Source of the DNA: a virus
Virus record (IMG/VR): IMGVR_UViG_3300031673_000102
DNA: 46,183 bases
Strand: one strand, 5' to 3'
Shown here one piece after another: positions 2,446-46,183 of the stretch. Made by a program: the position numbers and the translations under genes. The notes under the pieces were generated by a model. It worked only from the letters and a program-made list of their open reading frames with translations, was not told the origin of the DNA and did not search any database. Every line of letters begins with the position of its first letter. Position 1 is the first letter of the stretch.

Positions 2446-3297
2446 ATGAAGATTATCAAACCATCTGTAGAGTTTTTTGGCGCCGTACCGACAGACTATG
2501 CTGGGGCACTGGCTTTCATTGAGAAGGCCGGGAGGACTTGCTACAAGTCTGAGGACAAGATCACTGCCGACAGTGCCGAGGGGTTTGTCAAGCGCTTGAT
2601 TAAGGCTAGGCATCTGGCCATGGTGGAGCACAGTAATTTTGTGGTGCGCATCCCGCTAGGTACTGGGGCCTCCGAACGGATACAGTCTGCCGACAAATAC
2701 TTGAACGTGTTTAATGATGAAGACTACGGCTATATCGGTGGGAGCTTAACCGCGTGGGTACAAACTCCATACCTAGCTGCAAAGGGAATGTTATTGTTCC
2801 GAGGGGTATACGGAGAGTTGTTTGGTCTGAATGTCGTTGATGGGAAAACTGACTGGCAAGTCTGCCCCCACAACGAAATCCCCAAAGCCCTCCACCGCTA
2901 CTCGGCCAAGTTCATCTGCGACCGGGGAGTCAGCCACGAACTTGTCCGGCACCGGCCTTGCAGTTTCGCTCAGGAGTCCACCCGCTATGTCAACTACGGC
3001 GGCAAGGACATGGAGTTCATTGAGCCTGCTGGGTTTGAGGAGTGGAGTCCTGGCAACCAGCAGAAGTTTGCAAATGCCTGTGGGCGATCTGAGGAGCTGT
3101 ACAAGGCAATGCTTTATGGTGGACTATCCCCCCAACAGGCTCGGGCTGTGCTGCCGAACTCCCTCAAAACCGAGATCATCATCACTGCCGATGCCGCTGA
3201 GTGGGCGCACATCAAGAAGTTGAGAACACATCCATCTGCCCATCCTGACATGGTGCGGATTATGAACATGATGCCTTGGAATGATTTCCTGTGTTGA
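2446..3297 (+). CDS. thyX: Flavin-dependent thymidylate synthase ThyX
   Basis: ThyX signature RHRPCSFAQESTRY (RHRxxSxxxxSxRY). ATG 2446 is preceded by AAGGAG. The track ORF start at 2371 is probably too far upstream. Confidence 0.9.
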   Translation: MKIIKPSVEFFGAVPTDYAGALAFIEKAGRTCYKSEDKITADSAEGFVKRLIKARHLAMVEHSNFVVRIPLGTGASERIQSADKYLNVFNDEDYGYIGGSLTAWVQTPYLAAKGMLLFRGVYGELFGLNVVDGKTDWQVCPHNEIPKALHRYSAKFICDRGVSHELVRHRPCSFAQESTRYVNYGGKDMEFIEPAGFEEWSPGNQQKFANACGRSEELYKAMLYGGLSPQQARAVLPNSLKTEIIITADAAEWAHIKKLRTHPSAHPDMVRIMNMMPWNDFLC

Positions 3298-3695: not shown

Positions 3696-6229
3696 TACCC
3701 AAAGCAACATACGTCCCATCTTCGGGCGACAAACTAACTGCCAAGTACATCGTGATAGGCGAGCAACCTGGTCGATCTGAAGTAATGAAAGGTCGTCCAT
3801 TCTGTGGACTATCAGGCTTGGAGCTTGATGATAATCTTCACAAGGCAGGGATCACTAGGAGTGAGTGTTACTTTACTAATGTCATTAAAGATATAGACCG
3901 CCCTATTGCTCACTACATAGAGTTCACGAAGAAAGGTCCGGTAATCCATCCTGAAGGGCAGGAGTATATCAACCAACTGGCCGCTGAAATCAACTCATGT
4001 TCAGCTAAGGTAATCATAACCCTGGGAAATATACCTCTCTTTGCACTCACCGATAGGTGGGGTATTAACCGCTGGCGTAGTTCCATTCTCCGCTCCAATC
4101 TAATTGGTGGAGATAAGATAGTAATCCCTGCACTTCACCCAGATACTATCACTTACAAGTATGTCTACAAGAACAAACGTCTTCTGATCATGGATCTTAA
4201 ACGGGCTAAGAAGATCCAAGAGAATGGGCACATTCCTACCCCTCGTCAGATAACAATACGTCCTACCTTCTCACAATCTATGCAGTTCCTCACAGCCTGT
4301 GAGCAGTATGGTCTGATGGGGAATCCCATCTCATACGACATTGAAGTAGATGTATTCAACGGAGAAATGACCTGTATCTCCTTTGCCTACGATGCTGAGA
4401 ATATCATCAGCATTCCTTTCACATGTGAACATGGAGATTACTTTACCATTGATCAAGAGATAACCATTCTCCTTAAGATAGCCAGTCTACTAGAAAATGC
4501 TGAGATAGAAAAGTGTGGGCAAAATCTCTGCTTTGATTCCCACTATATGCTTCGTAAGTATGGGATCAAGGTAAGGAATATGCACGACACTATGATAGCT
4601 CAGAAGACCCTCCTCCCTGACTATGCTGTAGGTCTGCATTTCATCTGCTCTCTTTATACTGACATCCCATACTACAAGGATGATGGTAAGTATTGGCTGA
4701 AGGGAATAGGAAACTTTGAGAGTGGTTGGAGATACAATGCTCTTGACTCAGCAGTCTGTGCTGAAGCCCTGCCTAAGCAACTCCAAGATCTGATCCGTCA
4801 GCAGAACTACTATGCTTATGAGCGTAAGTGTAAAACTATCCCTGCCTACGTCTACATTATGGAGAAGGGAATTCGAATAAACGTAGCCTCCATGACTCAG
4901 GCTTACAATGAGATGGGCCATGAGATGGAGGATACTCTAAAGGAACTTCACAAGGTTTGTAAGTTTGACATCAATCCCAACTCACCTAAACAGGTAGCTA
5001 GTTATTTCTATAAACAGAAAGGCTTACCAGCATATAAGAATAAAACCGGAGGAGACACTACAGATGAGAAAGCACTTAAGAGGATTGCAAGAAAAGGTTA
5101 TGGAGAAGCTTCACTCATCCTTAGACTCCGGGGACTTTCAAAAGAGCGAAGCACTTTCCTCGACCCTGCTAAAGTTGATGTAGACGGAAGAATGCGGTGC
5201 TCATATAATCCCGTCGGAACCAGATTCTCCAGAGTTTCTTCCTCTGAAAACATATTTGGAACAGGAAATAACTTGCAAAATCAACCTCACAGAGTCCTCA
5301 CCCATTTCTTAGCAGACCCTTGGCATATCTTTTATGGGCTGGACTTAAGTCAAGCTGAGAATAGATTGGTCGCCTACATCGGCCGCATCACTCAGATGAT
5401 TGAAGCCTTTGAAAGAGGTGAGGATATTCACGGACTGACTGCCAGAATTATGATGAACATCTTCTTCAATGGTAAGTCTGATCACTTAACTGTGAAGGAC
5501 TTAGCCCCTATTGGCGATGGTAAGAAGACATGGCGTGACTGGGGAAAGAAAGCCAATCATGGTCTTAACTATGACCTCGGCTTTAAGACCTTCTCCTTGT
5601 ATAATGAGATCCCTGAACGTGATGGTAAGATGATTGTTGACATCTATCACAAAGCATATCCTGGGGTGCGAAGTGGCTTTCATGCTTACATCAAACAATG
5701 CATCAACAAGAATAGAACCTTAACTAATTACATGGGTCGTAAGACTCTCTTTACTGATCGCCTTGACGACGCACTCTATAAGGATGGCTATGCTTGCATA
5801 CCTCAAGGAACAGTTGGAGATGTGATTGATCAGAGGGGAATCAACTATGTATATTATAATACTAACCCACTCTTTAAATATGTTCAACTATTAATTCAGG
5901 TACATGATCAGATAGGATTTCAAATCCCATCTCCTCTGCATCCTGAAACTCCAGTGAGTTGGGAAGATCACTCAAGGATTCTGACCATGGTTAAGCAGAG
6001 TCTTGAGACACCACTCTATACTCACTATGGACAGCGGTTTATAATCCCTGCTGATGTAACTATGGGAGTTTGTCTTAATAAAGAATTAACTTTTGAAAAT
6101 CTGCGAAAGAAATATCCTTCAAATATGGCAGCAAATATGACAAAGGCTAAGGATCTTAAATCTATTGATCCTCAATCTATTGAACAATCTTACTATGAGG
6201 TAACACAAGGATGGCTACCGACGGTATGA
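3692..6229 (+). CDS. Family A DNA polymerase with N-terminal family-4 UDG-like domain and 3'-5' exonuclease domain
   Basis: UDG-like: GEQPG...RPFCGLSG and ALHPD. Exonuclease: YDIEVD, NLCFDSHY, YNALDS. Polymerase: LDLSQAENRL (motif A), KKANHGLNYDLG (motif B), VHDQ (motif C). Start moved to ATG 3692 (ATGA overlap, AAGGA upstream). Confidence 0.9.
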   Translation: MIPKATYVPSSGDKLTAKYIVIGEQPGRSEVMKGRPFCGLSGLELDDNLHKAGITRSECYFTNVIKDIDRPIAHYIEFTKKGPVIHPEGQEYINQLAAEINSCSAKVIITLGNIPLFALTDRWGINRWRSSILRSNLIGGDKIVIPALHPDTITYKYVYKNKRLLIMDLKRAKKIQENGHIPTPRQITIRPTFSQSMQFLTACEQYGLMGNPISYDIEVDVFNGEMTCISFAYDAENIISIPFTCEHGDYFTIDQEITILLKIASLLENAEIEKCGQNLCFDSHYMLRKYGIKVRNMHDTMIAQKTLLPDYAVGLHFICSLYTDIPYYKDDGKYWLKGIGNFESGWRYNALDSAVCAEALPKQLQDLIRQQNYYAYERKCKTIPAYVYIMEKGIRINVASMTQAYNEMGHEMEDTLKELHKVCKFDINPNSPKQVASYFYKQKGLPAYKNKTGGDTTDEKALKRIARKGYGEASLILRLRGLSKERSTFLDPAKVDVDGRMRCSYNPVGTRFSRVSSSENIFGTGNNLQNQPHRVLTHFLADPWHIFYGLDLSQAENRLVAYIGRITQMIEAFERGEDIHGLTARIMMNIFFNGKSDHLTVKDLAPIGDGKKTWRDWGKKANHGLNYDLGFKTFSLYNEIPERDGKMIVDIYHKAYPGVRSGFHAYIKQCINKNRTLTNYMGRKTLFTDRLDDALYKDGYACIPQGTVGDVIDQRGINYVYYNTNPLFKYVQLLIQVHDQIGFQIPSPLHPETPVSWEDHSRILTMVKQSLETPLYTHYGQRFIIPADVTMGVCLNKELTFENLRKKYPSNMAANMTKAKDLKSIDPQSIEQSYYEVTQGWLPTV

Positions 6230-6417
6230 CACAGTGCATAAAATGTAAAAGGCCTATAAAAGATATAGCTATTAGAGATGCACTAGTAACTTTAGGATGG
6301 ACTCCTCCTAAAGAGAAAGAAATACCTAAATGTTGTGTATGTGGCACTACTGAAAATTTACGTAAGGATGGATGGTATGGTTATAGATGTAGTTCTCCAG
6401 ACTGTATATGTTTTTAG
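6211..6417 (+). CDS. Small zinc-ribbon protein
   Basis: CIKC ... CCVC ... C..C. The alternative start ATG 6226 gives an ATGA overlap with the polymerase stop. Confidence 0.55.
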   Translation: MATDGMTQCIKCKRPIKDIAIRDALVTLGWTPPKEKEIPKCCVCGTTENLRKDGWYGYRCSSPDCICF

Positions 6418-6428
6418 GAGGGTAGAGA

Positions 6429-7631
6429 ATGCCTCGTAGACTTGCCGACTGGCTGGACTCTTACATGGAGTTCACTGATCAAAGTGAACCTCCAGAACTC
6501 TTTCATATATGGACAGCTATCTCCACAGTCGCTGCTGTTCTCCAAAGGAAATGTGTAATTAACTGGGGGCCTATCCGCTTCTTCCCCAATATGTATGTAG
6601 TGCTATGTGCCCCTCCTGGTAAGGCTCGTAAGGGTACAGCCATGGCTTATGGTTCCACATTCCTTTCTCGCATTGGAGTGAAGGTAGCTGCGGAATCTAT
6701 AACCAGGGAGGCTCTAGTCCGTGAGATAATGGAAGCTGCAACTACTGAGATTAATGATGAGACTGGAGAGCTTACTTTCCATTCTTCACTTACCATTTTC
6801 TCTCAGGAGTTAACAGTATTTCTTGGCTATAATCAGCAGCAACTGATGATGGATCTTACTGACTGGTTCGATTGTGGGAGAGGGCCAGAAGGAAAGTGGA
6901 CTTACCGTACCAAGCATCAAGGTACTGATGACATCACCGGGATTTGGATTAACCTGATTGGGGCCACAACTCCTGGCCTACTTAGATCAACCCTTAGTAT
7001 GGATGCTATCGGCGGTGGATTAACTTCACGAATTATCTTCGTGTATCAAGAGGAGAAAGGAAAGTCTTGCCCAGTTCTCTTTCAAACTCCGGAGATAATT
7101 AAACTTGGTGAGGATCTCTATTCCGACCTTGAGCAAATCTATTTACTCAAGGGACAGTTCAAACCATCCTCAGACTTCATTGACTTATGGGTTGAGTGGT
7201 ATGTTAAGCAAGAGGGTAGAACTGTATTCAACACCCCTCATCTTGAAGCCTACTGTGAACGCCGCCCAGTTCATGTAATGAAACTATCCATGATCCTAAA
7301 CGCTTGTCGCACAGATAGCATGGTGATTACATCTGTGGATCTTCAGAGGGCTATCAGCCTATTGGAAAAAACTGAATGCCACATGCCTAAGGTCTTCTCA
7401 GGTATAGGTAAATCTCAACATGCTGAAGTACTCAGCAAGATAATGAATGAGATTGGTTTGACTGGTACAATCTCACTCAGAGAACTTCAGAACAAATTCA
7501 AGTACGATGCCGATGCTAGAGTCCTAGATCTTATTGTTCAAACTCTGAAGAGCATGGGCTTTATCTCCACAAGAGATACAGAGAGTGACACAATCCTTAT
7601 ACATAATACTAAGGGAGGTGTCCAGTCATGA
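6429..7631 (+). CDS. DUF3987-like P-loop ATPase (putative replicative helicase or initiator)
   Basis: N-terminal pattern ELFHIWTAISTVAAVL... followed by VVLCAPPGKARKGTA (Walker-A-like). Sits beside the polymerase. GGAGG upstream. Confidence 0.5.
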   Translation: MPRRLADWLDSYMEFTDQSEPPELFHIWTAISTVAAVLQRKCVINWGPIRFFPNMYVVLCAPPGKARKGTAMAYGSTFLSRIGVKVAAESITREALVREIMEAATTEINDETGELTFHSSLTIFSQELTVFLGYNQQQLMMDLTDWFDCGRGPEGKWTYRTKHQGTDDITGIWINLIGATTPGLLRSTLSMDAIGGGLTSRIIFVYQEEKGKSCPVLFQTPEIIKLGEDLYSDLEQIYLLKGQFKPSSDFIDLWVEWYVKQEGRTVFNTPHLEAYCERRPVHVMKLSMILNACRTDSMVITSVDLQRAISLLEKTECHMPKVFSGIGKSQHAEVLSKIMNEIGLTGTISLRELQNKFKYDADARVLDLIVQTLKSMGFISTRDTESDTILIHNTKGGVQS

Positions 7632-31413: not shown

Positions 31414-31798
31414 TACTATACCCTAAGGATTCTGGCTTATTCTTAGCAGCCCAAAATGCTGGCCCACCACATAAATGTACTGCTTGATAGTATATCTTTG
31501 CTCGTCGAATTCTCAATAGCTTCAGCCATTTCCAACTACAGCCATCATCTATTAACCGAAGCATATTGTTTAAGAAAACTCGATCCGCTTCATTTTTATC
31601 CTCTAATGTGGCCCCACAGATATACATCCAATCGTGGATATTACAAGCTGGAGTAATACATAGTCCATAGATTGTATCTGGAACCAGTATACCAATGACC
31701 CCTCTCGTACCACATCCATTCGTAGCATTAGCACGAGCTTCTGGTGTCAACTTCCAATACTGGTCAGGGGCAAATAACTTACTCATAATCAGTTTCAT
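31406..31798 (-). CDS. Protein with secreted-phospholipase-A2-like motifs
   Basis: NGCGTRG (resembles the Ca-loop xCGxGG), then ACNIHDWMY 23 aa later (resembles CCxxHDxxY), then EADRVF downstream. Cys-rich, 130 aa. Confidence 0.4.
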   Translation of the reverse strand: MKLIMSKLFAPDQYWKLTPEARANATNGCGTRGVIGILVPDTIYGLCITPACNIHDWMYICGATLEDKNEADRVFLNNMLRLIDDGCSWKWLKLLRIRRAKIYYQAVHLCGGPAFWAAKNKPESLGYSNG

Positions 31799-32409
31799 CC
31801 TGGTTCAATAGCCATCTGACCTGAAAATCCAGCTAGTTCTCTAGCTCTCTCTTTAATCCTTTCTATATCATCCAACGTAAAATGCCCATGGACATTTCTA
31901 GTGTCAATCCTCTGAGTAGGTTTCCCAATCTCACGATCCATCAGATTGTTCGCTTCCTTCATAATGGAAGACCCGCTCAGCTCACGGCCAAGAACTTGAC
32001 CAGTCTCCAGAGCTTCCCTCACTCTTTGAAGAGCGATAGGAGCTAGGTCAGCAATATCCTTCGCCAGGTCGATAGTCCCAGCATCACGAGCCGCCCTCAT
32101 GATGGTGATCTTATCCTGCACCACCGGAGAGTTCCTAACATTGGAAACCTGTTGAGCAGTTACATTAAGAGCTTCACCAATCTCTTGGTTATTCTGCCCG
32201 AGGATAATCCTCCTAGCAATCTCATGATGCCTATCCCACATCTCAGCTACTTGCCATCCCTTCTTCTTAGCAACTTCACCAGGCGCAGTTTTATTCTCAA
32301 TCCTACGGGCATCCTTACGATCAGGCTGTAGATACCTATCCCCTGGATAAGAGTACACTACCTCCTGCCCAGCAGCATTGATGACAGTATTTGTGATAAC
32401 ACTAGACAT
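31795..32409 (-). CDS. HTH DNA-binding protein (small terminase or late regulator candidate)
   Basis: LGQNNQEIGEALNVTAQQVSNV resembles a sigma70-region-4/LuxR-type HTH. Start set to ATG 32409, which is preceded by GGAGG. First gene of the minus arm. Confidence 0.4.
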   Translation of the reverse strand: MSSVITNTVINAAGQEVVYSYPGDRYLQPDRKDARRIENKTAPGEVAKKKGWQVAEMWDRHHEIARRIILGQNNQEIGEALNVTAQQVSNVRNSPVVQDKITIMRAARDAGTIDLAKDIADLAPIALQRVREALETGQVLGRELSGSSIMKEANNLMDREIGKPTQRIDTRNVHGHFTLDDIERIKERARELAGFSGQMAIEPG

Positions 32410-32542
32410 AAAAGTCCTCCAATTGTGAATCCATTTTACCATGCTCATAGGAATAAATCAAGGCATCATTTGGCACATAGTAGGCTACTAGTTAGCAATT
32501 CTGAACCTCGCCCAGTGGATCACCTCAGTGATCTTGGCCTGT

Positions 32543-32567
32543 GCTGTATGGATTAAATCCACATAGC
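32543..32567 (+). promoter_or_regulatory. 25-bp dyad motif copy 5: GCTGTATGGATTAAATCCACATAGC
   Basis: In the divergent control region, 153 nt upstream of the -35 box of P1. Confidence 0.7.
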
Positions 32568-32720
32568 ACAAAGTGCTAAGGATAGAGTGCTAAGAGGATG
32601 GATTAATCACCAATTGGTACCAATACCAAACTTACGACACAACTTACATACAAGGATCTATGGGGTACAGCCAACCCCCAACCCCCGATGGGGGGACCAT
32701 GCGGGTTTTGGACGCCTAAT

Positions 32721-32748
32721 TTGACAAATCCCTCAAATTTGGTATAAT
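32721..32748 (+). promoter_or_regulatory. Near-consensus sigma70-type early promoter P1
   Basis: TTGACA (32721-32726), 16-nt spacer ending in TGg, then TATAAT (32743-32748). About 180 nt upstream of ATG 32932. Confidence 0.7.
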
Positions 32749-32931
32749 GGGATCAACATCGGGGCACAATACATAACGCCCCACCGATCATTGACATAAC
32801 GGGCATCGCCCGAACCAGTAGGGCTGGCGACATGGGATACGGGAGAGCCGTAGGGCATGGCGTAACAGAGCTGGAATACATGATACCTGGCCTAAAGGGC
32901 AGATGACTTTCCGACAATAAGGAGAATCATC

Positions 32932-33423
32932 ATGAGCACAACAACTGTGAAGTTTAAAGTGGCAATGGATGCGGAGCAGAAGGCCGCGAAGAATTTCAAG
33001 GAAGTAGAGTTTGAATGTTCATTTGACGGGGTTGATCCCTCGATCATTCAGCGTCATGCCATTGCGAATCAGATTGTCATATGGCAGGGGCAGATCAGGA
33101 ACAACTGGGATAAGTTCCTCAGTGGGAAACTCCCGAAGATTGTAACATTCGGAGTCCCTCTCTTCGAGGGCGGCCGCAATCGTACCCGCCCGATTACTGA
33201 GGACGACATTCGGGCATACCTTGCCGGGAAGTCACCGGAGGAGGTTAGGGCTTTCTTGTGGAATGTACGAGGGGGATGGCAGGGGCAGATCAGGAACGAC
33301 TGGAGTAAGTTTCTCGAAGCAGGTGGCAACGAAGTAAAGCAGGAGGAAGTGGACAACACTCCAGAGTTGGACGAGGATGGCGATCCGATCTTTGTCGATC
33401 CTGGGGACGCAGAAGAATATTAA
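32932..33423 (+). CDS. First early protein: acidic, with an internal duplicated WQGQIRNxWxKFL motif
   Basis: AAGGAG SD. By my count 29 D/E versus 20 K/R. C-terminus DEDGDPIFVDPGDAEEY. 21-nt identical repeat at 33082-33102 and 33277-33297. Confidence 0.7.
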   Translation: MSTTTVKFKVAMDAEQKAAKNFKEVEFECSFDGVDPSIIQRHAIANQIVIWQGQIRNNWDKFLSGKLPKIVTFGVPLFEGGRNRTRPITEDDIRAYLAGKSPEEVRAFLWNVRGGWQGQIRNDWSKFLEAGGNEVKQEEVDNTPELDEDGDPIFVDPGDAEEY

Positions 33424-33512
33424 GTCAATCAGTAGGCTCACCAACTAACCAACCAAAGTTATCTGCTCTTTATGCTGGGTATCATCAACATTAACTTAAC
33501 AAGGAGATTATC

Positions 33513-33659
33513 ATGCTATATGCAAAATGCCCAGACTGTGGAAAGTTATTATTTAAGTATGACTCTAAATTAGTAATGATATTTGGACGTGAGATATTCA
33601 TCAAAGAAGGTCAGATATATCTAGGGGAACTTCTGTGTTCTTGTCAGGGTGGAGTGTAA
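33513..33659 (+). CDS. 48-aa zinc-ribbon-like peptide (not in the ORF track)
   Basis: AAGGAG plus 7 nt, then ATG. Translates MLYAKCPDCGKLLFKYDSKLVMIFGREIFIKEGQIYLGELLCSCQGGV. Confidence 0.45.
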   Translation: MLYAKCPDCGKLLFKYDSKLVMIFGREIFIKEGQIYLGELLCSCQGGV

Positions 33660-34203
33660 TGGGGTGCATTGGTTGAATTGAAAAAGCCGAAAGAATGGAT
33701 TAAACGCACCCCATGCACACACAAATTTAAATGGAATTGTAACGCAGTAACTGGGTAATGGCGTAACGGGAAAATGCCTTAGAGTTAAGGTGGTACCAAA
33801 AAATATTATATAACTAAGAAGGATTATATATAGATTGAATATCAACTCTCTCCATTACAAAATTTTGATTGAATGGTGTGTGTATGGGGTGGATTCATTG
33901 GGTTTATGAGACTCTTGACGCTCATTCCATTTGGTGCATTCGGGACTATCGTCCCAATAGTCAGTAGAACTATATACTGGAGGAGGTAGAGATATGGATG
34001 GACTACTGGGGTGGAGTACCTACTCGTTGAGATTCTGTGGGTGGTGGATTCGGAGTGGCCGGACTTCTGAATGGGCATTAGTGGTGATTGCTACTAATGT
34101 TCGTGTCCTTAATGTATGGAACTAATGGGATTCCGCAAGGAATCATGCTGACCTCTCCAGTCAGACTTTCTCATCTATTAGCCTGACTAGGAGAAGTTGG
34201 AAT
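33660..34203 (+). other. ORF-free, hairpin-rich region (candidate structured RNA or origin)
   Basis: No plus-strand ORF with an SD. Stems GGGGTGC/GCACCCC, GGGAC-tatc-GTCCC, GATTCC-GCAA-GGAATC and AGTCAG/CTGACT. TAATG(G/T) recurs. Confidence 0.3.
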
Positions 34204-34228
34204 GCTATGTGGATTAAATCATCATAGC
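34204..34228 (+). promoter_or_regulatory. 25-bp dyad motif copy 6: GCTATGTGGATTAAATCATCATAGC
   Basis: 39 nt upstream of the -35 box of P2. Confidence 0.7.
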
Positions 34229-34267
34229 ATAACCATCTCCACTACTCAAATTAAAATTGGTTAGATA

Positions 34268-34296
34268 TTGACAACTGGTGTAATGTGGTGTATGGT
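34268..34296 (+). promoter_or_regulatory. Sigma70-type promoter candidate P2
   Basis: TTGACA (34268-34273), 17 nt, TATGGT (34291-34296). Shares TTGACAACTG with P3. Confidence 0.5.
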
Positions 34297-34359
34297 GTAA
34301 TGGTATGAATGGGGTAATGGATTTGCCCTTAGATCAACAATAACTGGGAGGAAATATTC

Positions 34360-34608
34360 ATGGGACATGAAATGTTACTCATCTGGACTGTACGAGTGGG
34401 GATGCTAATCATTGCCATAGTCATGGGAATTTGCATCTATGTCATTAACTTTCCTTATAAATGTATCAGAACATTTGGCTTACCTGCTAAAGGTCGATCT
34501 TTTGGTAAGATAGATCCTCATGTTAACGAGTGGGAAGTCCTCTACATTAACAGTGATGGGGATACTCTCAACCGGTGTAAACACTGTCCTGCGGAGACTT
34601 GGTCATGA
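34360..34608 (+). CDS. Small membrane protein
   Basis: GGGAGG SD. TM segment VGMLIIAIVMGICIYVI. C-terminal CKHC. Confidence 0.55.
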   Translation: MGHEMLLIWTVRVGMLIIAIVMGICIYVINFPYKCIRTFGLPAKGRSFGKIDPHVNEWEVLYINSDGDTLNRCKHCPAETWS

Positions 34609-34823
34609 TCGTCTATGAAGTAGTTGAAGAAGGCTTTAATGGTGGTACTGATGCTACGGATGAAAAGATTATATGGATTATATCTAAGGATAAAGAATCT
34701 GTAATAAGGTTCTGTAATTCTAAAGATATAATTTATACATCTATTGAAGTTACATCTATCAGTATTGACAGTATAGGCATTGACTATGTTATTATAGGAG
34801 GTAATTTCTATGAGAAAATCTAA
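34599..34823 (+). CDS. Hypothetical early protein
   Basis: Overlapping start. Acidic 74 aa. Confidence 0.45.
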   Translation: MVMIVYEVVEEGFNGGTDATDEKIIWIISKDKESVIRFCNSKDIIYTSIEVTSISIDSIGIDYVIIGGNFYEKI

Positions 34824-35070
34824 GAAATCAAAATTCCCTGACATGGATCGTTCTCCAGAAGTTCGACGTGGAAAGGAGATGGGATTCTTAAACTTCCAGC
34901 CTCTCCACGTGAATCGATGGCAGTGGTCGGATCAAGTGATCTTCTGGACCTGGAGGGATGCTCAGAGGGAGTTCTTCGAGTCTAAGCGTAGAACTGTAAG
35001 GGGGAAGAGGTTGATAGTACTCACTGGGCTGGCTATAGTGATTGGCTCAATAATCTGGATGGTAATTTAG
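34810..35070 (+). CDS. Small protein with C-terminal TM segment
   Basis: AGGAGG SD. LIVLTGLAIVIGSIIWMVI. Confidence 0.5.
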   Translation: MRKSKKSKFPDMDRSPEVRRGKEMGFLNFQPLHVNRWQWSDQVIFWTWRDAQREFFESKRRTVRGKRLIVLTGLAIVIGSIIWMVI

Positions 35071-41468: not shown

Positions 41469-42437
41469 ATGAACATCTCTGAACTACCCCTCCCCATCTC
41501 ATACCATTCAAGTATGGACATTCTCGATAGCACCAAGATTCAATCCTATCAGGATTGCCCGCGTGCTTTCTTCTACGAGTACGTCCTCGGGTGGAGATCC
41601 TCCTATCCCAATAACCACTTGCACTTCGGCAAGGCAGTCCACATAGCAATGGAGCATATCATCCTCCACGGCTATCGAGTGGAAGCAGTAATGGAAGCTC
41701 TCACCCTCTTCAACGATGAATATCGTAGTGCATTTCCTGAATCTACTGATGAAATCTTTTCACCTAAAACTCCGGGAAGATTTTTCGAGATGTTGATCCT
41801 ATATCTCAAACAGTATGCAGATGATCTCACCAACTACAAAGTCTACAAGACAGAATTCGGAGGAACTATCCACCTTTCACCTAAGCACAAGATTGCCTTC
41901 AAGATGGACACCGTACTCCAAGATCAGCGTGATGGAAAATACTGCTCACTTGAGCATAAGACCAAGGGTGGAAACTATATCTCCGACTCCTACCTATACG
42001 AACATATGATGGGAATTCAGTGCGGTACCTATACTCACGTCCTCAACTGCCTCTTCCCGCCTGAAGAAGTAAGTGGTATCATCATCAACTGTATGTGCTT
42101 TAAGAAAACCAAAATCGCTGATTATATTCTCAAAAGATTCCCTATTAACTATTCCAACTCCCAGATGTTCAACTGGCTGGAGAATACAAAGAGTTGGATG
42201 GATCGCATCTATAAAGACTTCGCTCTGTTGGCGGGTACTACTATTGGAGCTGACCGTATGGATTGCTTCCCTCTGAATGGTAGGAGTTGTTGTAACTGGG
42301 GGAGGACTTGCACCTATTTAGGCCTCTGTAATAGTTGGAATAACCCTATTCAGCATCAGGAGAAACTTCCTGCTGATATGAAGGTTGAGTTTTGGAATCC
42401 GTTGGAAGAAGATCTTCGAGAGGTACTATCCTTATGA
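41469..42437 (+). CDS. Cas4/RecB-like PD-(D/E)xK exonuclease with Fe-S cysteine cluster
   Basis: YQDCPRAFFYEYVLG N-terminal Cys. FKMD...LEHKTK (D...ExK). C-terminal CFPLNGRSCCNWGRTCTYLGLC. Confidence 0.75.
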   Translation: MNISELPLPISYHSSMDILDSTKIQSYQDCPRAFFYEYVLGWRSSYPNNHLHFGKAVHIAMEHIILHGYRVEAVMEALTLFNDEYRSAFPESTDEIFSPKTPGRFFEMLILYLKQYADDLTNYKVYKTEFGGTIHLSPKHKIAFKMDTVLQDQRDGKYCSLEHKTKGGNYISDSYLYEHMMGIQCGTYTHVLNCLFPPEEVSGIIINCMCFKKTKIADYILKRFPINYSNSQMFNWLENTKSWMDRIYKDFALLAGTTIGADRMDCFPLNGRSCCNWGRTCTYLGLCNSWNNPIQHQEKLPADMKVEFWNPLEEDLREVLSL

Positions 42438-42688
42438 GCACTTCATATAATCTAACACATAAAACATTTCACAATCTACATATTAATGAGAGTTCTAATA
42501 CACTTGAGTTAGCTGTAGATATTAAAGATTCTAATGGAGATTTAGTAGAATATTATCCAATAACTAAATATTTAACTCCTAGAGATATGGTAGTTATATT
42601 TCTTGAGGGTTTAAAAGTCTGTTCTTATTGGATGGATTCTAAGGATTTTAAGGATGCTTTAAGTAAGTTGGAGGACTACTCATTATGA
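42434..42688 (+). CDS. Hypothetical protein
   Basis: ATGA overlap. Start moved to ATG 42434. Confidence 0.45.
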   Translation: MSTSYNLTHKTFHNLHINESSNTLELAVDIKDSNGDLVEYYPITKYLTPRDMVVIFLEGLKVCSYWMDSKDFKDALSKLEDYSL

Positions 42689-42975
42689 GTAATGATCATC
42701 TAATTCTATCTGAGACAAAGCCAGAACTAATCGGAGGACTAACCATTGAAGACGAACGTCAGGCTGAGTTGACTCTTCTGATGCTCCTTGAAGATATGCT
42801 TCAATCAGAGAGAGTCCCCTTCCTACAAGAAGCCGGAGTTTCTTTCGACGAGTTTAATAGAATTTACGAGAAATGGTTTAGAGTTCTTGAACGTTATAGA
42901 AAGGAGAAAGCAAATGGCAGAACCGACAAAACCCCCAGTCCCACCAATAACTCAGACTACAGTGAAACCTATTGA
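42685..42975 (+). CDS. Hypothetical acidic protein
   Basis: ATGA overlap. Its 3' end overlaps the next gene by 62 nt if that gene starts at 42914. Confidence 0.45.
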   Translation: MSNDHLILSETKPELIGGLTIEDERQAELTLLMLLEDMLQSERVPFLQEAGVSFDEFNRIYEKWFRVLERYRKEKANGRTDKTPSPTNNSDYSETY

Positions 42976-43708
42976 GGCCAACCTAACTCAGGCTGCTTCT
43001 GAGAATGCAGAGTCTATGTACAAAGGTCAGAAGTCCCAACTCATTCTTGGTATATCCAAAAGTGGGCGAGGAAAGTCTAACTCCATTCGTAACTTGAACC
43101 CGGAGAATACCTTTCTAATAAACGTGGTGGGAAAGTCTCTTCCCTTTCCCAAAGGTATGCAATACCAAGAGAAGAAGAACATGCTGAACTCAGCCGATCC
43201 TGCTACCATCTCTCGGACTATGATGGAAGTATCACGGGATGAGAAGTGGAAACACCTAGTCATTGATGATGCCCAGTACATCATGGCTACTGAGTTCATG
43301 GCTAAAGCCCTTGAGAAAGGATTCGATAAGTTCACCCTTATGGCTAAACACATCTTCGATGTGGTAATACTAGCTACTAAATTAAGAGGTAGCCTTAAGG
43401 TATTCATTCTTACACACGAAGAAGATACTGGCACTGAGAGGAAGATGAAAACTCTGGGTAAACTCCTTGATGATAAGGTAACTCTTGAAGGCCTGAGTAC
43501 CATCGTCCTATTTGCCGAAGTAGTAGCCGACGATACCAAGCGATCCTATTACTTCACCACACAAAGTGATGGTTACACCACTGCTAAAACTCCATTCGAT
43601 ATGTTTCCATATCGGATTGATAATGACTTGGACTTAGTGTCTAAGAGGATAGATGAGTATTATAAGGGAGTCCCTCTAAAGGATTCTAAACTGAAGTTCA
43701 TTCCATAA
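42914..43708 (+). CDS. AAA_24/Sak4-like recombination ATPase
   Basis: Walker A GISKSGRGKS, Walker B HLVIDDAQY. AAGGAG SD before ATG 42914. The alternative ATG 43016 gives a typically short N-terminus. Confidence 0.6.
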   Translation: MAEPTKPPVPPITQTTVKPIEANLTQAASENAESMYKGQKSQLILGISKSGRGKSNSIRNLNPENTFLINVVGKSLPFPKGMQYQEKKNMLNSADPATISRTMMEVSRDEKWKHLVIDDAQYIMATEFMAKALEKGFDKFTLMAKHIFDVVILATKLRGSLKVFILTHEEDTGTERKMKTLGKLLDDKVTLEGLSTIVLFAEVVADDTKRSYYFTTQSDGYTTAKTPFDMFPYRIDNDLDLVSKRIDEYYKGVPLKDSKLKFIP

Positions 43709-45676: not shown

Positions 45677-46183
45677 TGGATACTCCGGAAATTCCTATAA
45701 CTTCCATAGAACTGGGAGAACGCTTCCGTAAAGATTACGGAAACATTGAGCAACTCATGTTCTCAATCAAGAAGAATGGCCTAATCACTCCAGTCGCTGT
45801 AGGCGTAGCCGACAAGGTTAAGGTGGGAAGAGAGACTGATCTCCCTTATATCCTACTTGCTGGGGGTCGAAGGATGGCGGCCCTAACTGCTATGGGCTGG
45901 ACTTCTATCCCTGTCCGGATTTACGACCAACCTATCTCCGAACTAGACTTACGTTCCATTGAGTTGGCTGAGAACTTTGATCGAAAGAGTATGGAGTACG
46001 CAGAAGAGATTGCTCTCATGAGACAGATCAACAATCTCCAGATTGAAATTCATGGCCCTAAGATAACTAGAAGTCCTGATGCGCCTGGCTGGAGCCAGGC
46101 AGACACCGCTAAGTTAGTGAAGAAAGATCCCTCAACCGTGGCTAAGGATCTTCAACTAGCCGAGGCCATCGAAAGATTTCCTG
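45676..46183 (+). CDS. ParB-like N-terminal domain of the ParB/methyltransferase fusion; 3' partial here, continues at position 128 after the duplicated 127 nt
   Basis: MDTPEIPITSIELGERFRKDYG... and LLAGGRRMAAL (ParB box GxRR). In phase with 1-951, giving 443 aa in total on the circular genome. Confidence 0.8.
   Translation, partial: MDTPEIPITSIELGERFRKDYGNIEQLMFSIKKNGLITPVAVGVADKVKVGRETDLPYILLAGGRRMAALTAMGWTSIPVRIYDQPISELDLRSIELAENFDRKSMEYAEEIALMRQINNLQIEIHGPKITRSPDAPGWSQADTAKLVKKDPSTVAKDLQLAEAIERFP
46057..46183. repeat. Terminal exact duplicate of 1-127 (circular assembly overlap)
   Basis: Identical to 1-127. The reading frame of the gene starting at 45676 continues in phase into position 1. 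Confidence 0.95.

Follow-up and report, generated by a model that had tools for sequence, protein, structure and literature searches.

At the origins of phages and plasmids, replication proteins usually bind to arrays of short repeats in non-coding DNA. The origin (ori) of phage lambda combines iterons for the O protein with an AT-rich region, and the ori and crr sites of phage P4 contain type I repeats of 8 bp, to which the alpha primase-helicase binds. In the lactococcal phages c2, sk1 and those of the P335 group, origins demonstrated by plasmid replication and interference assays lie in non-coding parts of the early region; these are AT-rich stretches of a few hundred bp, free of open reading frames (ORFs), which hold direct and inverted repeats and are transcribed from an early promoter. 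Repeats of similar length also form the operators of ribbon-helix-helix proteins, namely the 8-bp metboxes of MetJ and the 7-bp omega heptads of pSM19035. Origins of the RepA_N type, for example PLE's non-coding region, belong to the closest systems as well, and RepA_N iterons contain 8–9-bp repeats (PMC7145576). Here we describe a comparable locus in the virus record IMGVR_UViG_3300031673_000102 (46,183 nt; this whole stretch of DNA is referred to as the window), where the original prediction had singled out a ∼550-nt ORF-free and hairpin-rich stretch (33660–34203) and had left open whether it encodes a large ornate RNA or contains a replication origin.

The stretch is a mosaic, in which a symmetric repeat array with an AT-rich core, a 43-codon gene, terminator-like hairpins, and the putative operator and promoter of the next operon follow one another, and this composition argues against a large structured RNA. 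Its core (33654–33935) is most simply read as an iteron-type replication origin whose box-binding protein would also control the promoter of the next operon (P2), a reading whose chances we judge to be evenly balanced. It is suggested by the combination of repeat arrays, a constant repeat period, a dyad, a meltable core, the position in the genome, the replisome encoded by the phage, and the presence of boxes on P2. The gap in coding sequence is real, but it is not one ORF-free unit, as the small gene (33994–34125) lies inside it. Under a lenient rule that counted any same-direction ORF of at least 40 amino acids (aa) as coding, only three same-direction ORF-free gaps of at least 200 nt were found genome-wide: 32449–32931, which is the divergent promoter region, 33660–33993 and 34126–34359. 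Relatives were recovered from viral contigs, metagenomes and a large protein collection using the 163-aa gene at 32932–33423, and their contigs were fetched. Those designated L006, L001/L028, L022 and L014/L026 are close relatives, with 60–70% identity to the window through the non-coding parts, and L019 is the corresponding region of Desulfofustis phage MD01 (OP947158.1).

The element begins at its left edge with a GTGTAATGG box (33654–33662, plus strand) that overlaps the TAA stop codon of an upstream 48-aa gene. Non-coding homology with L001, L006, L022 and L014 begins exactly at this box, and the small gene upstream of it differs among the phages. The left dyad arm (33658–33722), made up of AATGG, GCATTG and GAATGG half-repeats together with CACCCCATGCACACAC, is followed by four tandem GTAAY boxes on the plus strand (33739–33767), which start at 33739, 33747, 33755 and 33763 and thus keep an exact 8-nt period. 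The same place is occupied by an array of four to seven copies in L001, L028, L022, L014 and L026. Beyond the boxes lies the AT-rich core, a putative DNA-unwinding element (33795–33845), which includes the least stable 40-mer duplex of the genome (33802–33842; dG −38.5 versus a mean of −51.6) and in which neither a scan nor inspection revealed a sigma-70 promoter. AT-rich cores are present in all relatives, and the conserved ATTATATAAC...ATATATAG of this one is common even to L010, whose repeats differ. To the right, an inverted box, CCATTAC (33852–33858, minus strand), is invariant in five relatives, the relatives as a whole carrying two to six inverted copies on this side, and the right dyad arm (GTGTGTGTATGGGGTGGATTCATT ... 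CTCATTCCATT) extends over 33876–33931.

The two arms, which are imperfect and 60–70 nt long, pair in the consensus of five relatives, and the 16-nt core of the left arm (33707–33722) is 94% complementary to 33876–33891. When the left half of the element was compared with the reverse complement of the right half, the dyad was significant at all nine loci (z = 5.3–16.5; 5.4 in the window). The boxes are likewise concentrated at this locus, with 7 of the 20 genomic copies of GTAAYG found within 681 nt of the region (Poisson P = 3e-8). The recurrence of TAATG noted in the original prediction was borne out, with eight plus-strand copies in 33640–34340 where ∼1.1 were expected (75 copies in the genome).

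The window and more than 12 related uncultivated phages have a common layout in the syntenic gap, the loci being those of L001/L028, L006, L022, L014/L026, L023, L003, L029, L010/L016, L011, L030 and L019. It consists of a left direct-repeat array, a G/C run, an AT-rich core, inverted copies of that repeat, and a sigma-70-type promoter, which follows the core either directly or after a small gene, depending on the relative. While this layout stays, the sequence of the repeat turns over between lineages: the unit is GTAAY in the window, L001, L022, L014 and L023; CCATATAAT or TAACCCAT in L003 and L029; AAATGCC in L010; TTGTAGGCG in L011; and TAGTGGGATAATAT in the Desulfofustis phage. In every case the repeats recur at 8, 9 or 17 nt, with a period of 8 nt in the GTAAY lineage of the window, 9 nt in L003, L029 and L011, and 17 nt at P2 and in L019 and L023.

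The resemblance to iteron origins extends to several properties. A tandem cluster of direct repeats (the four boxes at an 8-nt period, plus flanking copies) lies beside an AT-rich, easily melted stretch, a candidate unwinding element by its duplex stability at the 40-nt scale. A second, distant cluster of the repeat is placed on P2, comparable to crr of P4 or to the operator of a plasmid rep gene, and the repeat sequence is lineage-specific within a conserved layout. The element is located 1.2 kb from the point of divergence between the minus- and plus-strand operons, where cumulative GC skew is at its minimum, and the phage encodes replication genes of its own, including a primase, a family A polymerase with a fused UDG domain, a ligase, exonucleases and a Sak4-like annealing protein. 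It differs from iteron origins in that no initiator gene is recognizable, the period is only 8–9 bp, no cluster of DnaA boxes is present, and the arrays lie to the left and right of the AT-rich core as a large dyad instead of being confined to one side. The lactococcal phage origins share with it a length of a few hundred bp, a location in or beside an early unit, direct and inverted repeats, AT-richness and, here probably, transcription from an early promoter; there is no sequence similarity between them, and the window belongs to another phage group with a host probably from another phylum.

Several observations weigh against an origin at this locus. The minimum of GC skew is confounded with the switch in gene orientation. 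The dyad of the window is the weakest among all loci, and barely the top 352-nt window of the genome (45 versus 44.5); similarly, the AT-rich core ranks first at the 40-nt scale only, and third at 60 nt. DnaA boxes (TTATCCACA, at most one mismatch) number 13 in the genome against 15 expected, with no cluster in the region. The anatomy fits the origin option of the original prediction, but no initiator protein was found among the early proteins: when ∼40 proteins were searched against Pfam and PHROG, none of the early ones matched a family of initiators, integrases, partition proteins or DNA-binding proteins, including no match to Rep, O, DnaA-like or P4-alpha-type families, and the conserved neighboring 163-aa protein had no fold match in the PDB or BFVD. 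Lastly, a period of 8–9 bp is short for classical iterons and also suits repressor arrays.

If the core does serve as an origin, an early protein would coat the box arrays of both arms and, by distorting the DNA, melt the AT-rich core, letting the phage primase and family A polymerase load. Forks would then travel outward, co-directionally with the transcription of both diverging operons. The plus-strand operon is headed by a perfect sigma-70 promoter (P1; 32721, plus strand; TTGACA, 16-nt spacer, TATAAT), and since no terminator-like site was found between P1 and the core, transcription from P1 probably reads through the latter. Such transcription could aid opening, and the transcript would also carry the 43-codon gene. 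The hairpins and a 27-bp palindrome to the right (described below) would close the origin unit. Because P2 bears three GTAAY boxes, a protein bound to the origin would tie the activity of P2 to origin occupancy, as plasmid Rep proteins do.

The symmetry of the arms could also be read at the level of RNA, with the arms forming a long helix in the P1 transcript and thereby closing a large multi-hairpin RNA, and the probable transcription of the region from P1 would allow this. The plus strand has a minimum free energy (MFE) of −192 kcal/mol (z = −4.0), and RNAalifold returned a long-range helix between 33658–33722 and 33876–33931 in which nine pairs were changed on both sides. However, inverted arrays of binding sites that co-evolve with a protein would mimic this picture, and for this reason the types of mismatch were compared, using an alignment that gave no credit to wobble pairs. 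Across nine loci, 772 positions of the dyad arms formed Watson-Crick pairs, and the mismatches were 97 G·T, 78 A·C and 233 of other kinds, amounting to ∼65% complementarity with mostly non-wobble mismatches and no wobble bias. The lack of a G·U bias places the symmetry in the DNA and not in RNA; the dyad is a DNA-level feature, and probably one that binds protein.

A positive control was available nearby, as this phage family does use long-range RNA stems. An inverted repeat of 23–35 nt connects the leader of the 163-aa-family gene with the spacer past its stop codon at 13 of 13 loci (window, L001, L006, L028, L022, L014, L026, L023, L003, L010, L029, L030 and L031; z = 7.5–13), and in the window it pairs 32880–32910 with 33455–33485 on the plus strand. 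Over the 12 loci with ungapped arms, 302 positions formed Watson-Crick pairs, and the mismatches were 37 G·T, 1 A·C and 6 of other kinds. Its sequences are completely different among lineages, and it is present in both the MFE and centroid folds. Judged by this substitution pattern, the bracketing stem is marked as a true plus-strand RNA helix, unlike the dyad, and it may be an RNase III-type processing or stabilizing stem that excises the 163-aa mRNA from the P1 transcript. The comparison of G·T with A·C mismatches, with its built-in positive control, thus distinguishes DNA dyads from RNA helices.

Other properties of the locus point in the same direction. The stretch is hairpin-rich, as originally claimed, in that it folds more strongly than the genomic background (two 350-nt windows with z of −2.7/−3.4 and −2.3/−2.7, compared with −0.8/−0.6, sd 1, in 29 genome windows), though it does so on both strands, the minus strand folding at least as well as the plus strand. 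The 250-nt “loop” of the proposed RNA would be made of repeats and AT-rich DNA, G-rich and C-rich partners trade sides between lineages, and the repeat sequence is replaced wholesale from one lineage to another. The classes named in the original prediction, i.e. ROOL, GOLLD, HEARO and group I/II introns, agree with the stretch in size, phage location and apparent lack of ORFs only; here a gene and a promoter lie inside, and neither a covariance-model match nor strand-specific covariation was obtained. Rfam scans of the window and 10 related loci gave zero matches at the gathering score and only noise at E values up to 10. We therefore regard a structured non-coding RNA as scarcely probable. 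Covariation does occur on a small scale, since a short hairpin at 34129–34144 shows compensatory change in relatives, in contrast to the dyad arms without wobble bias.

P2 is a sigma-70-type promoter at 34268–34296 on the plus strand (TTGACA, 17-nt spacer, TATGGT) that opens the next early operon (first gene at 34360), both hexamers being conserved in five relatives. Three GTAAY boxes (34280–34318, plus strand; starts at 34280, 34297 and 34314) are spaced there at a 17-nt period, one in the promoter spacer and two just 3′ of the −10 hexamer, and their placement is the same in L001, L022, L014, L026 and L023. Short tandem repeats over a promoter are what an operator would show, and the whole array could belong to a regulator that polymerizes on the 8–9-bp boxes and switches P2 with no role in replication, for example in a transition from immediate-early to delayed-early expression, with a ribbon-helix-helix protein as one possibility. 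All GTAAY-type relatives have boxes at the start site of P2 as well as in its spacer, lineages without the small gene have the right array directly against the −35 hexamer of P2, and the −10 hexamer of P2 is weak, all of which would suit such a regulator. The MetJ and omega operators, too, combine direct and inverted copies at a 7–9-bp period below the helical turn and overlap promoters, yet the arrays described here surround a melting-prone core at a distance of 500 nt from the promoter; in the window, a gene and hairpins occupy the interval of that length between the main array and P2, which is 3′ of it. Furthermore, 300 bp with 10–20 sites placed symmetrically around the least stable DNA, and with poly-G and poly-A beside it, goes far beyond the needs of a promoter. 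Neither a ribbon-helix-helix nor a helix-turn-helix protein was detected among the early gene products; for the former, 20 early proteins gave no Pfam match at E values up to 0.1, although small divergent members can escape Pfam. On balance, we consider regulation without replication to be a rather unlikely explanation of the array.

Repeat clusters also flank the cleavage region at packaging sites such as pac of P1 and pacL/pacR of SPP1, and a gene for a protein resembling the small terminase subunit (TerS-like; 31795–32448) is encoded 1.2 kb away. By analogy, the small terminase subunit could bind the arrays of a pac- or cos-like site, with the cut in or near the AT-rich core, but this appears improbable to us. 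The element is inside the early operon, and in every relative it is set apart from terS by the promoter region together with one to three early genes (in the window, the promoter region and two genes separate the element from the TerS-like gene). A terminase would have no reason to bind an early promoter, and the contigs of near-complete relatives (43–51 kb) neither begin nor end at the element, which is weak evidence. Four short metagenomic contigs (L006, L016, L017 and L018) do end within the repeat/AT-rich element. Assembly can be expected to break contigs artificially at internal repeats and in AT-rich DNA, and these ends probably arose by breakage there or in hypervariable or low-coverage DNA, physical DNA ends being the less probable cause.

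Between the putative origin and P2 lies the small gene (33994–34125, plus strand), which encodes MDGLLGWSTYSLRFCGWWIRSGRTSEWALVVIATNVRVLNVWN. The original prediction held that no plus-strand ORF of the stretch had a Shine-Dalgarno (SD) sequence, which proved to be wrong: GGAGGAGG (33979–33986) sits eight bases 5′ of the ATG of this gene, and homologs with strong ribosome-binding sites are found in the same place in L001, L028, L022, L014 and L026. Between the window and L001, 14 codon changes are synonymous, including AGT to TCT (Ser) and CGG to AGA (Arg). The ratio of non-synonymous to synonymous differences (pN/pS) is 0.35–0.40 among the window, L022 and L001, and 0.07 for L014 against L026, a pair with 10 changes of which 8 are synonymous. 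On this coding-type substitution pattern, together with the conserved SD sequence, we count 33994–34125 as a real gene that is under purifying selection in five relatives. The product had already been called in a public protein collection (P0001), where a homolog search with the 43-aa protein returned only itself, and it had no match in Pfam.

Three other ORFs of the stretch were rejected as genes. The two on the minus strand (33621–33845 and 33842–34078), which had been viewed with doubt from the outset, are not conserved, and a counterpart in L001 is cut to 48 aa. ORF 33873–33989 (38 aa), which overlaps the right dyad arm, has no SD sequence, has substitutions spread 6/9/9 over the three codon positions, and is reduced to ∼21 aa in L022.

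The four stems listed in the original prediction all exist, two of them exactly where they were placed and two displaced by one base, and conservation in relatives speaks for two only. The GGGAC-TATC-GTCCC hairpin (33942–33955, plus strand) lies ∼25 nt 5′ of the ribosome-binding site of the small gene and is identical in L001 and L028, has a TAC loop in L022, and is missing from L014 and L026; because the stem is invariant where it is kept, it provides no evidence of covariation. GATTCC-GCAA-GGAATC (34129–34144, plus strand; one base from the predicted position), the GNRA hairpin, which is followed by CATGCT, stands directly past the stop codon that ends the small gene. L001 and L028 have the identical hairpin and L022 lacks it, and it has the counterparts GACAGCC-GCA-GGATGTC in L014 and GACACC-ATA-GGTGTC in L026. 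The replacement of the stem in the latter two, with CATGCT kept in both, is by its sequence pattern a real compensatory change. The remaining stems, GGGGTGC/GCACCCC (the second half at 33706–33712, again one base off) and AGTCAG/CTGACT (34159–34164 with 34183–34188, as predicted), are not kept in relatives. A weak terminator-like hairpin with a T-rich tail, CTGAC-CTCTCCA-GTCAG (34148–34174, plus strand), was identified by scanning as the sole such site in 32300–35000, which is no more than shuffled sequences yield, and it is not conserved in relatives.

Further to the right, a 27-bp palindrome, TGCTATGTGGATTAAATCATCATAGCA (34203–34229), is contained within a longer purine/pyrimidine stem (34190–34240), whose flanking part shows compensatory changes. 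It is found 40–60 nt 5′ of the −35 hexamer of P2 in L001, L028, L022, L014 and L026. This palindrome belongs to a family (consensus TGCTAYGTKGATTAAATCMACATAGCA) of ∼10 imperfect, dispersed copies in the genome, located at 3287, 10575, 18664, 22278, 28860, 32542, 34203, 38091, 41167 and 44704, nearly all of them in short intergenic gaps of both operons. Excluding the divergent promoter region, the eight intra-operon copies with a GATT-N-AATC centre all have the central A on the coding strand. In relatives, the outer TGCTATG/CATAGCA is kept and the palindromic centres differ. Mismatches within the family (7 G·U, 6 A·C and 16 other) lack a wobble bias, so a DNA site for a dimeric regulator is more likely than an RNA hairpin. 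The family resembles the stoperators of mycobacteriophages.

With regard to the genomic setting, the window carries an exact 127-bp direct repeat at its ends (1–127 and 46057–46183), typical for a circular contig from an assembler with k = 127, and is therefore a complete, circularly assembled phage genome of ∼46.06 kb, in which the methylase gene at 61–951 runs on from the far end. The minus strand from 32448 down to 7932 encodes structural and lysis genes (portal, large terminase subunit, amidase and the TerS-like protein), and the plus strand encodes early and replication genes, which extend from 32932 through the assembly junction as far as 7945, among them, besides those named above, a PD-(D/E)XK-type exonuclease, the methylase, an RNase T-like exonuclease and ThyX. 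The TerS-like protein contains a helix-turn-helix-like segment and resembles the protein annotated as TerS in Desulfofustis phage MD01, and the large terminase subunit, searched against PDB sequences for packaging type, had no match. The nearest named relative is the same phage, in full Desulfofustis phage LS06-2018-MD01 (43.5% polymerase identity), which is metagenome-assembled, was predicted to be strictly lytic, and had its host assigned via CRISPR spacers (PMC10370329). A BLASTN search of the region against 50,697 phage records gave no match, and a scan for tRNA and tmRNA genes found none.

The 163-aa protein encoded by the first early gene is an orphan. It matched no Pfam or PHROG family and no PDB sequence, and its AlphaFold model, which has a confident N-terminal half and an overall confidence score (pLDDT) of 72, resembled no fold in the databases searched. 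The hhalign probability between it and the equivalent protein of the Desulfofustis phage was 4.5%, so that the link between the two is only suggestive. Searches by tblastn against phages and in bacterial and archaeal genomes (as prophage or host genes) returned no further copies, and scanning viral contigs with the downstream 86-aa protein added no new loci. Within the gene, a 40-nt direct repeat (33081–33120 and 33276–33315; 90% identity) duplicates the motif WQGQIRNNWDKFL as WQGQIRNDWSKFL, and corresponds to a 20-residue insertion absent from all relatives.

Taken as one module, the orphan 163-aa-family gene bracketed by its RNA duplex would be followed by the dyad array of 8–9-bp-period repeats around the AT-rich core and then by P2. 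A tentative proposal, on which we would place limited weight, is that this module is a hitherto undescribed pair of origin and initiator from a clade of uncultivated phages, the nearest named relative being one that infects Desulfofustis. The 163-aa protein, or some other unannotated early protein, would then coat the arrays, open the core and gate P2, and a separate regulon of 27-bp palindromes would punctuate both operons.

Whatever protein may act on it, the stretch is, for a phage, a control region of an ordinary sort, comes from an undescribed clade, and represents no new class of RNA or mechanism. It provides a testable origin candidate and a recognizable architecture for a clade of ∼45-kb uncultivated phages, and the most interesting by-products of the analysis, the RNA duplex around the first early gene and the genome-wide palindrome family, adjoin the element. 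The 43-codon gene, the putative origin and the promoter with its operator are of the kind that routine pipelines miss or mis-call. In L019, positions 6209–7538 (42208–43537 of the record) are annotated with six reverse-strand coding sequences of 35–120 aa, labeled “hypothetical protein” or “ligase”, which overlie an apparent 153-codon plus-strand gene (L019 6357–6818) and the repeat/AT-rich dyad of that phage; these six are probably annotation artefacts.

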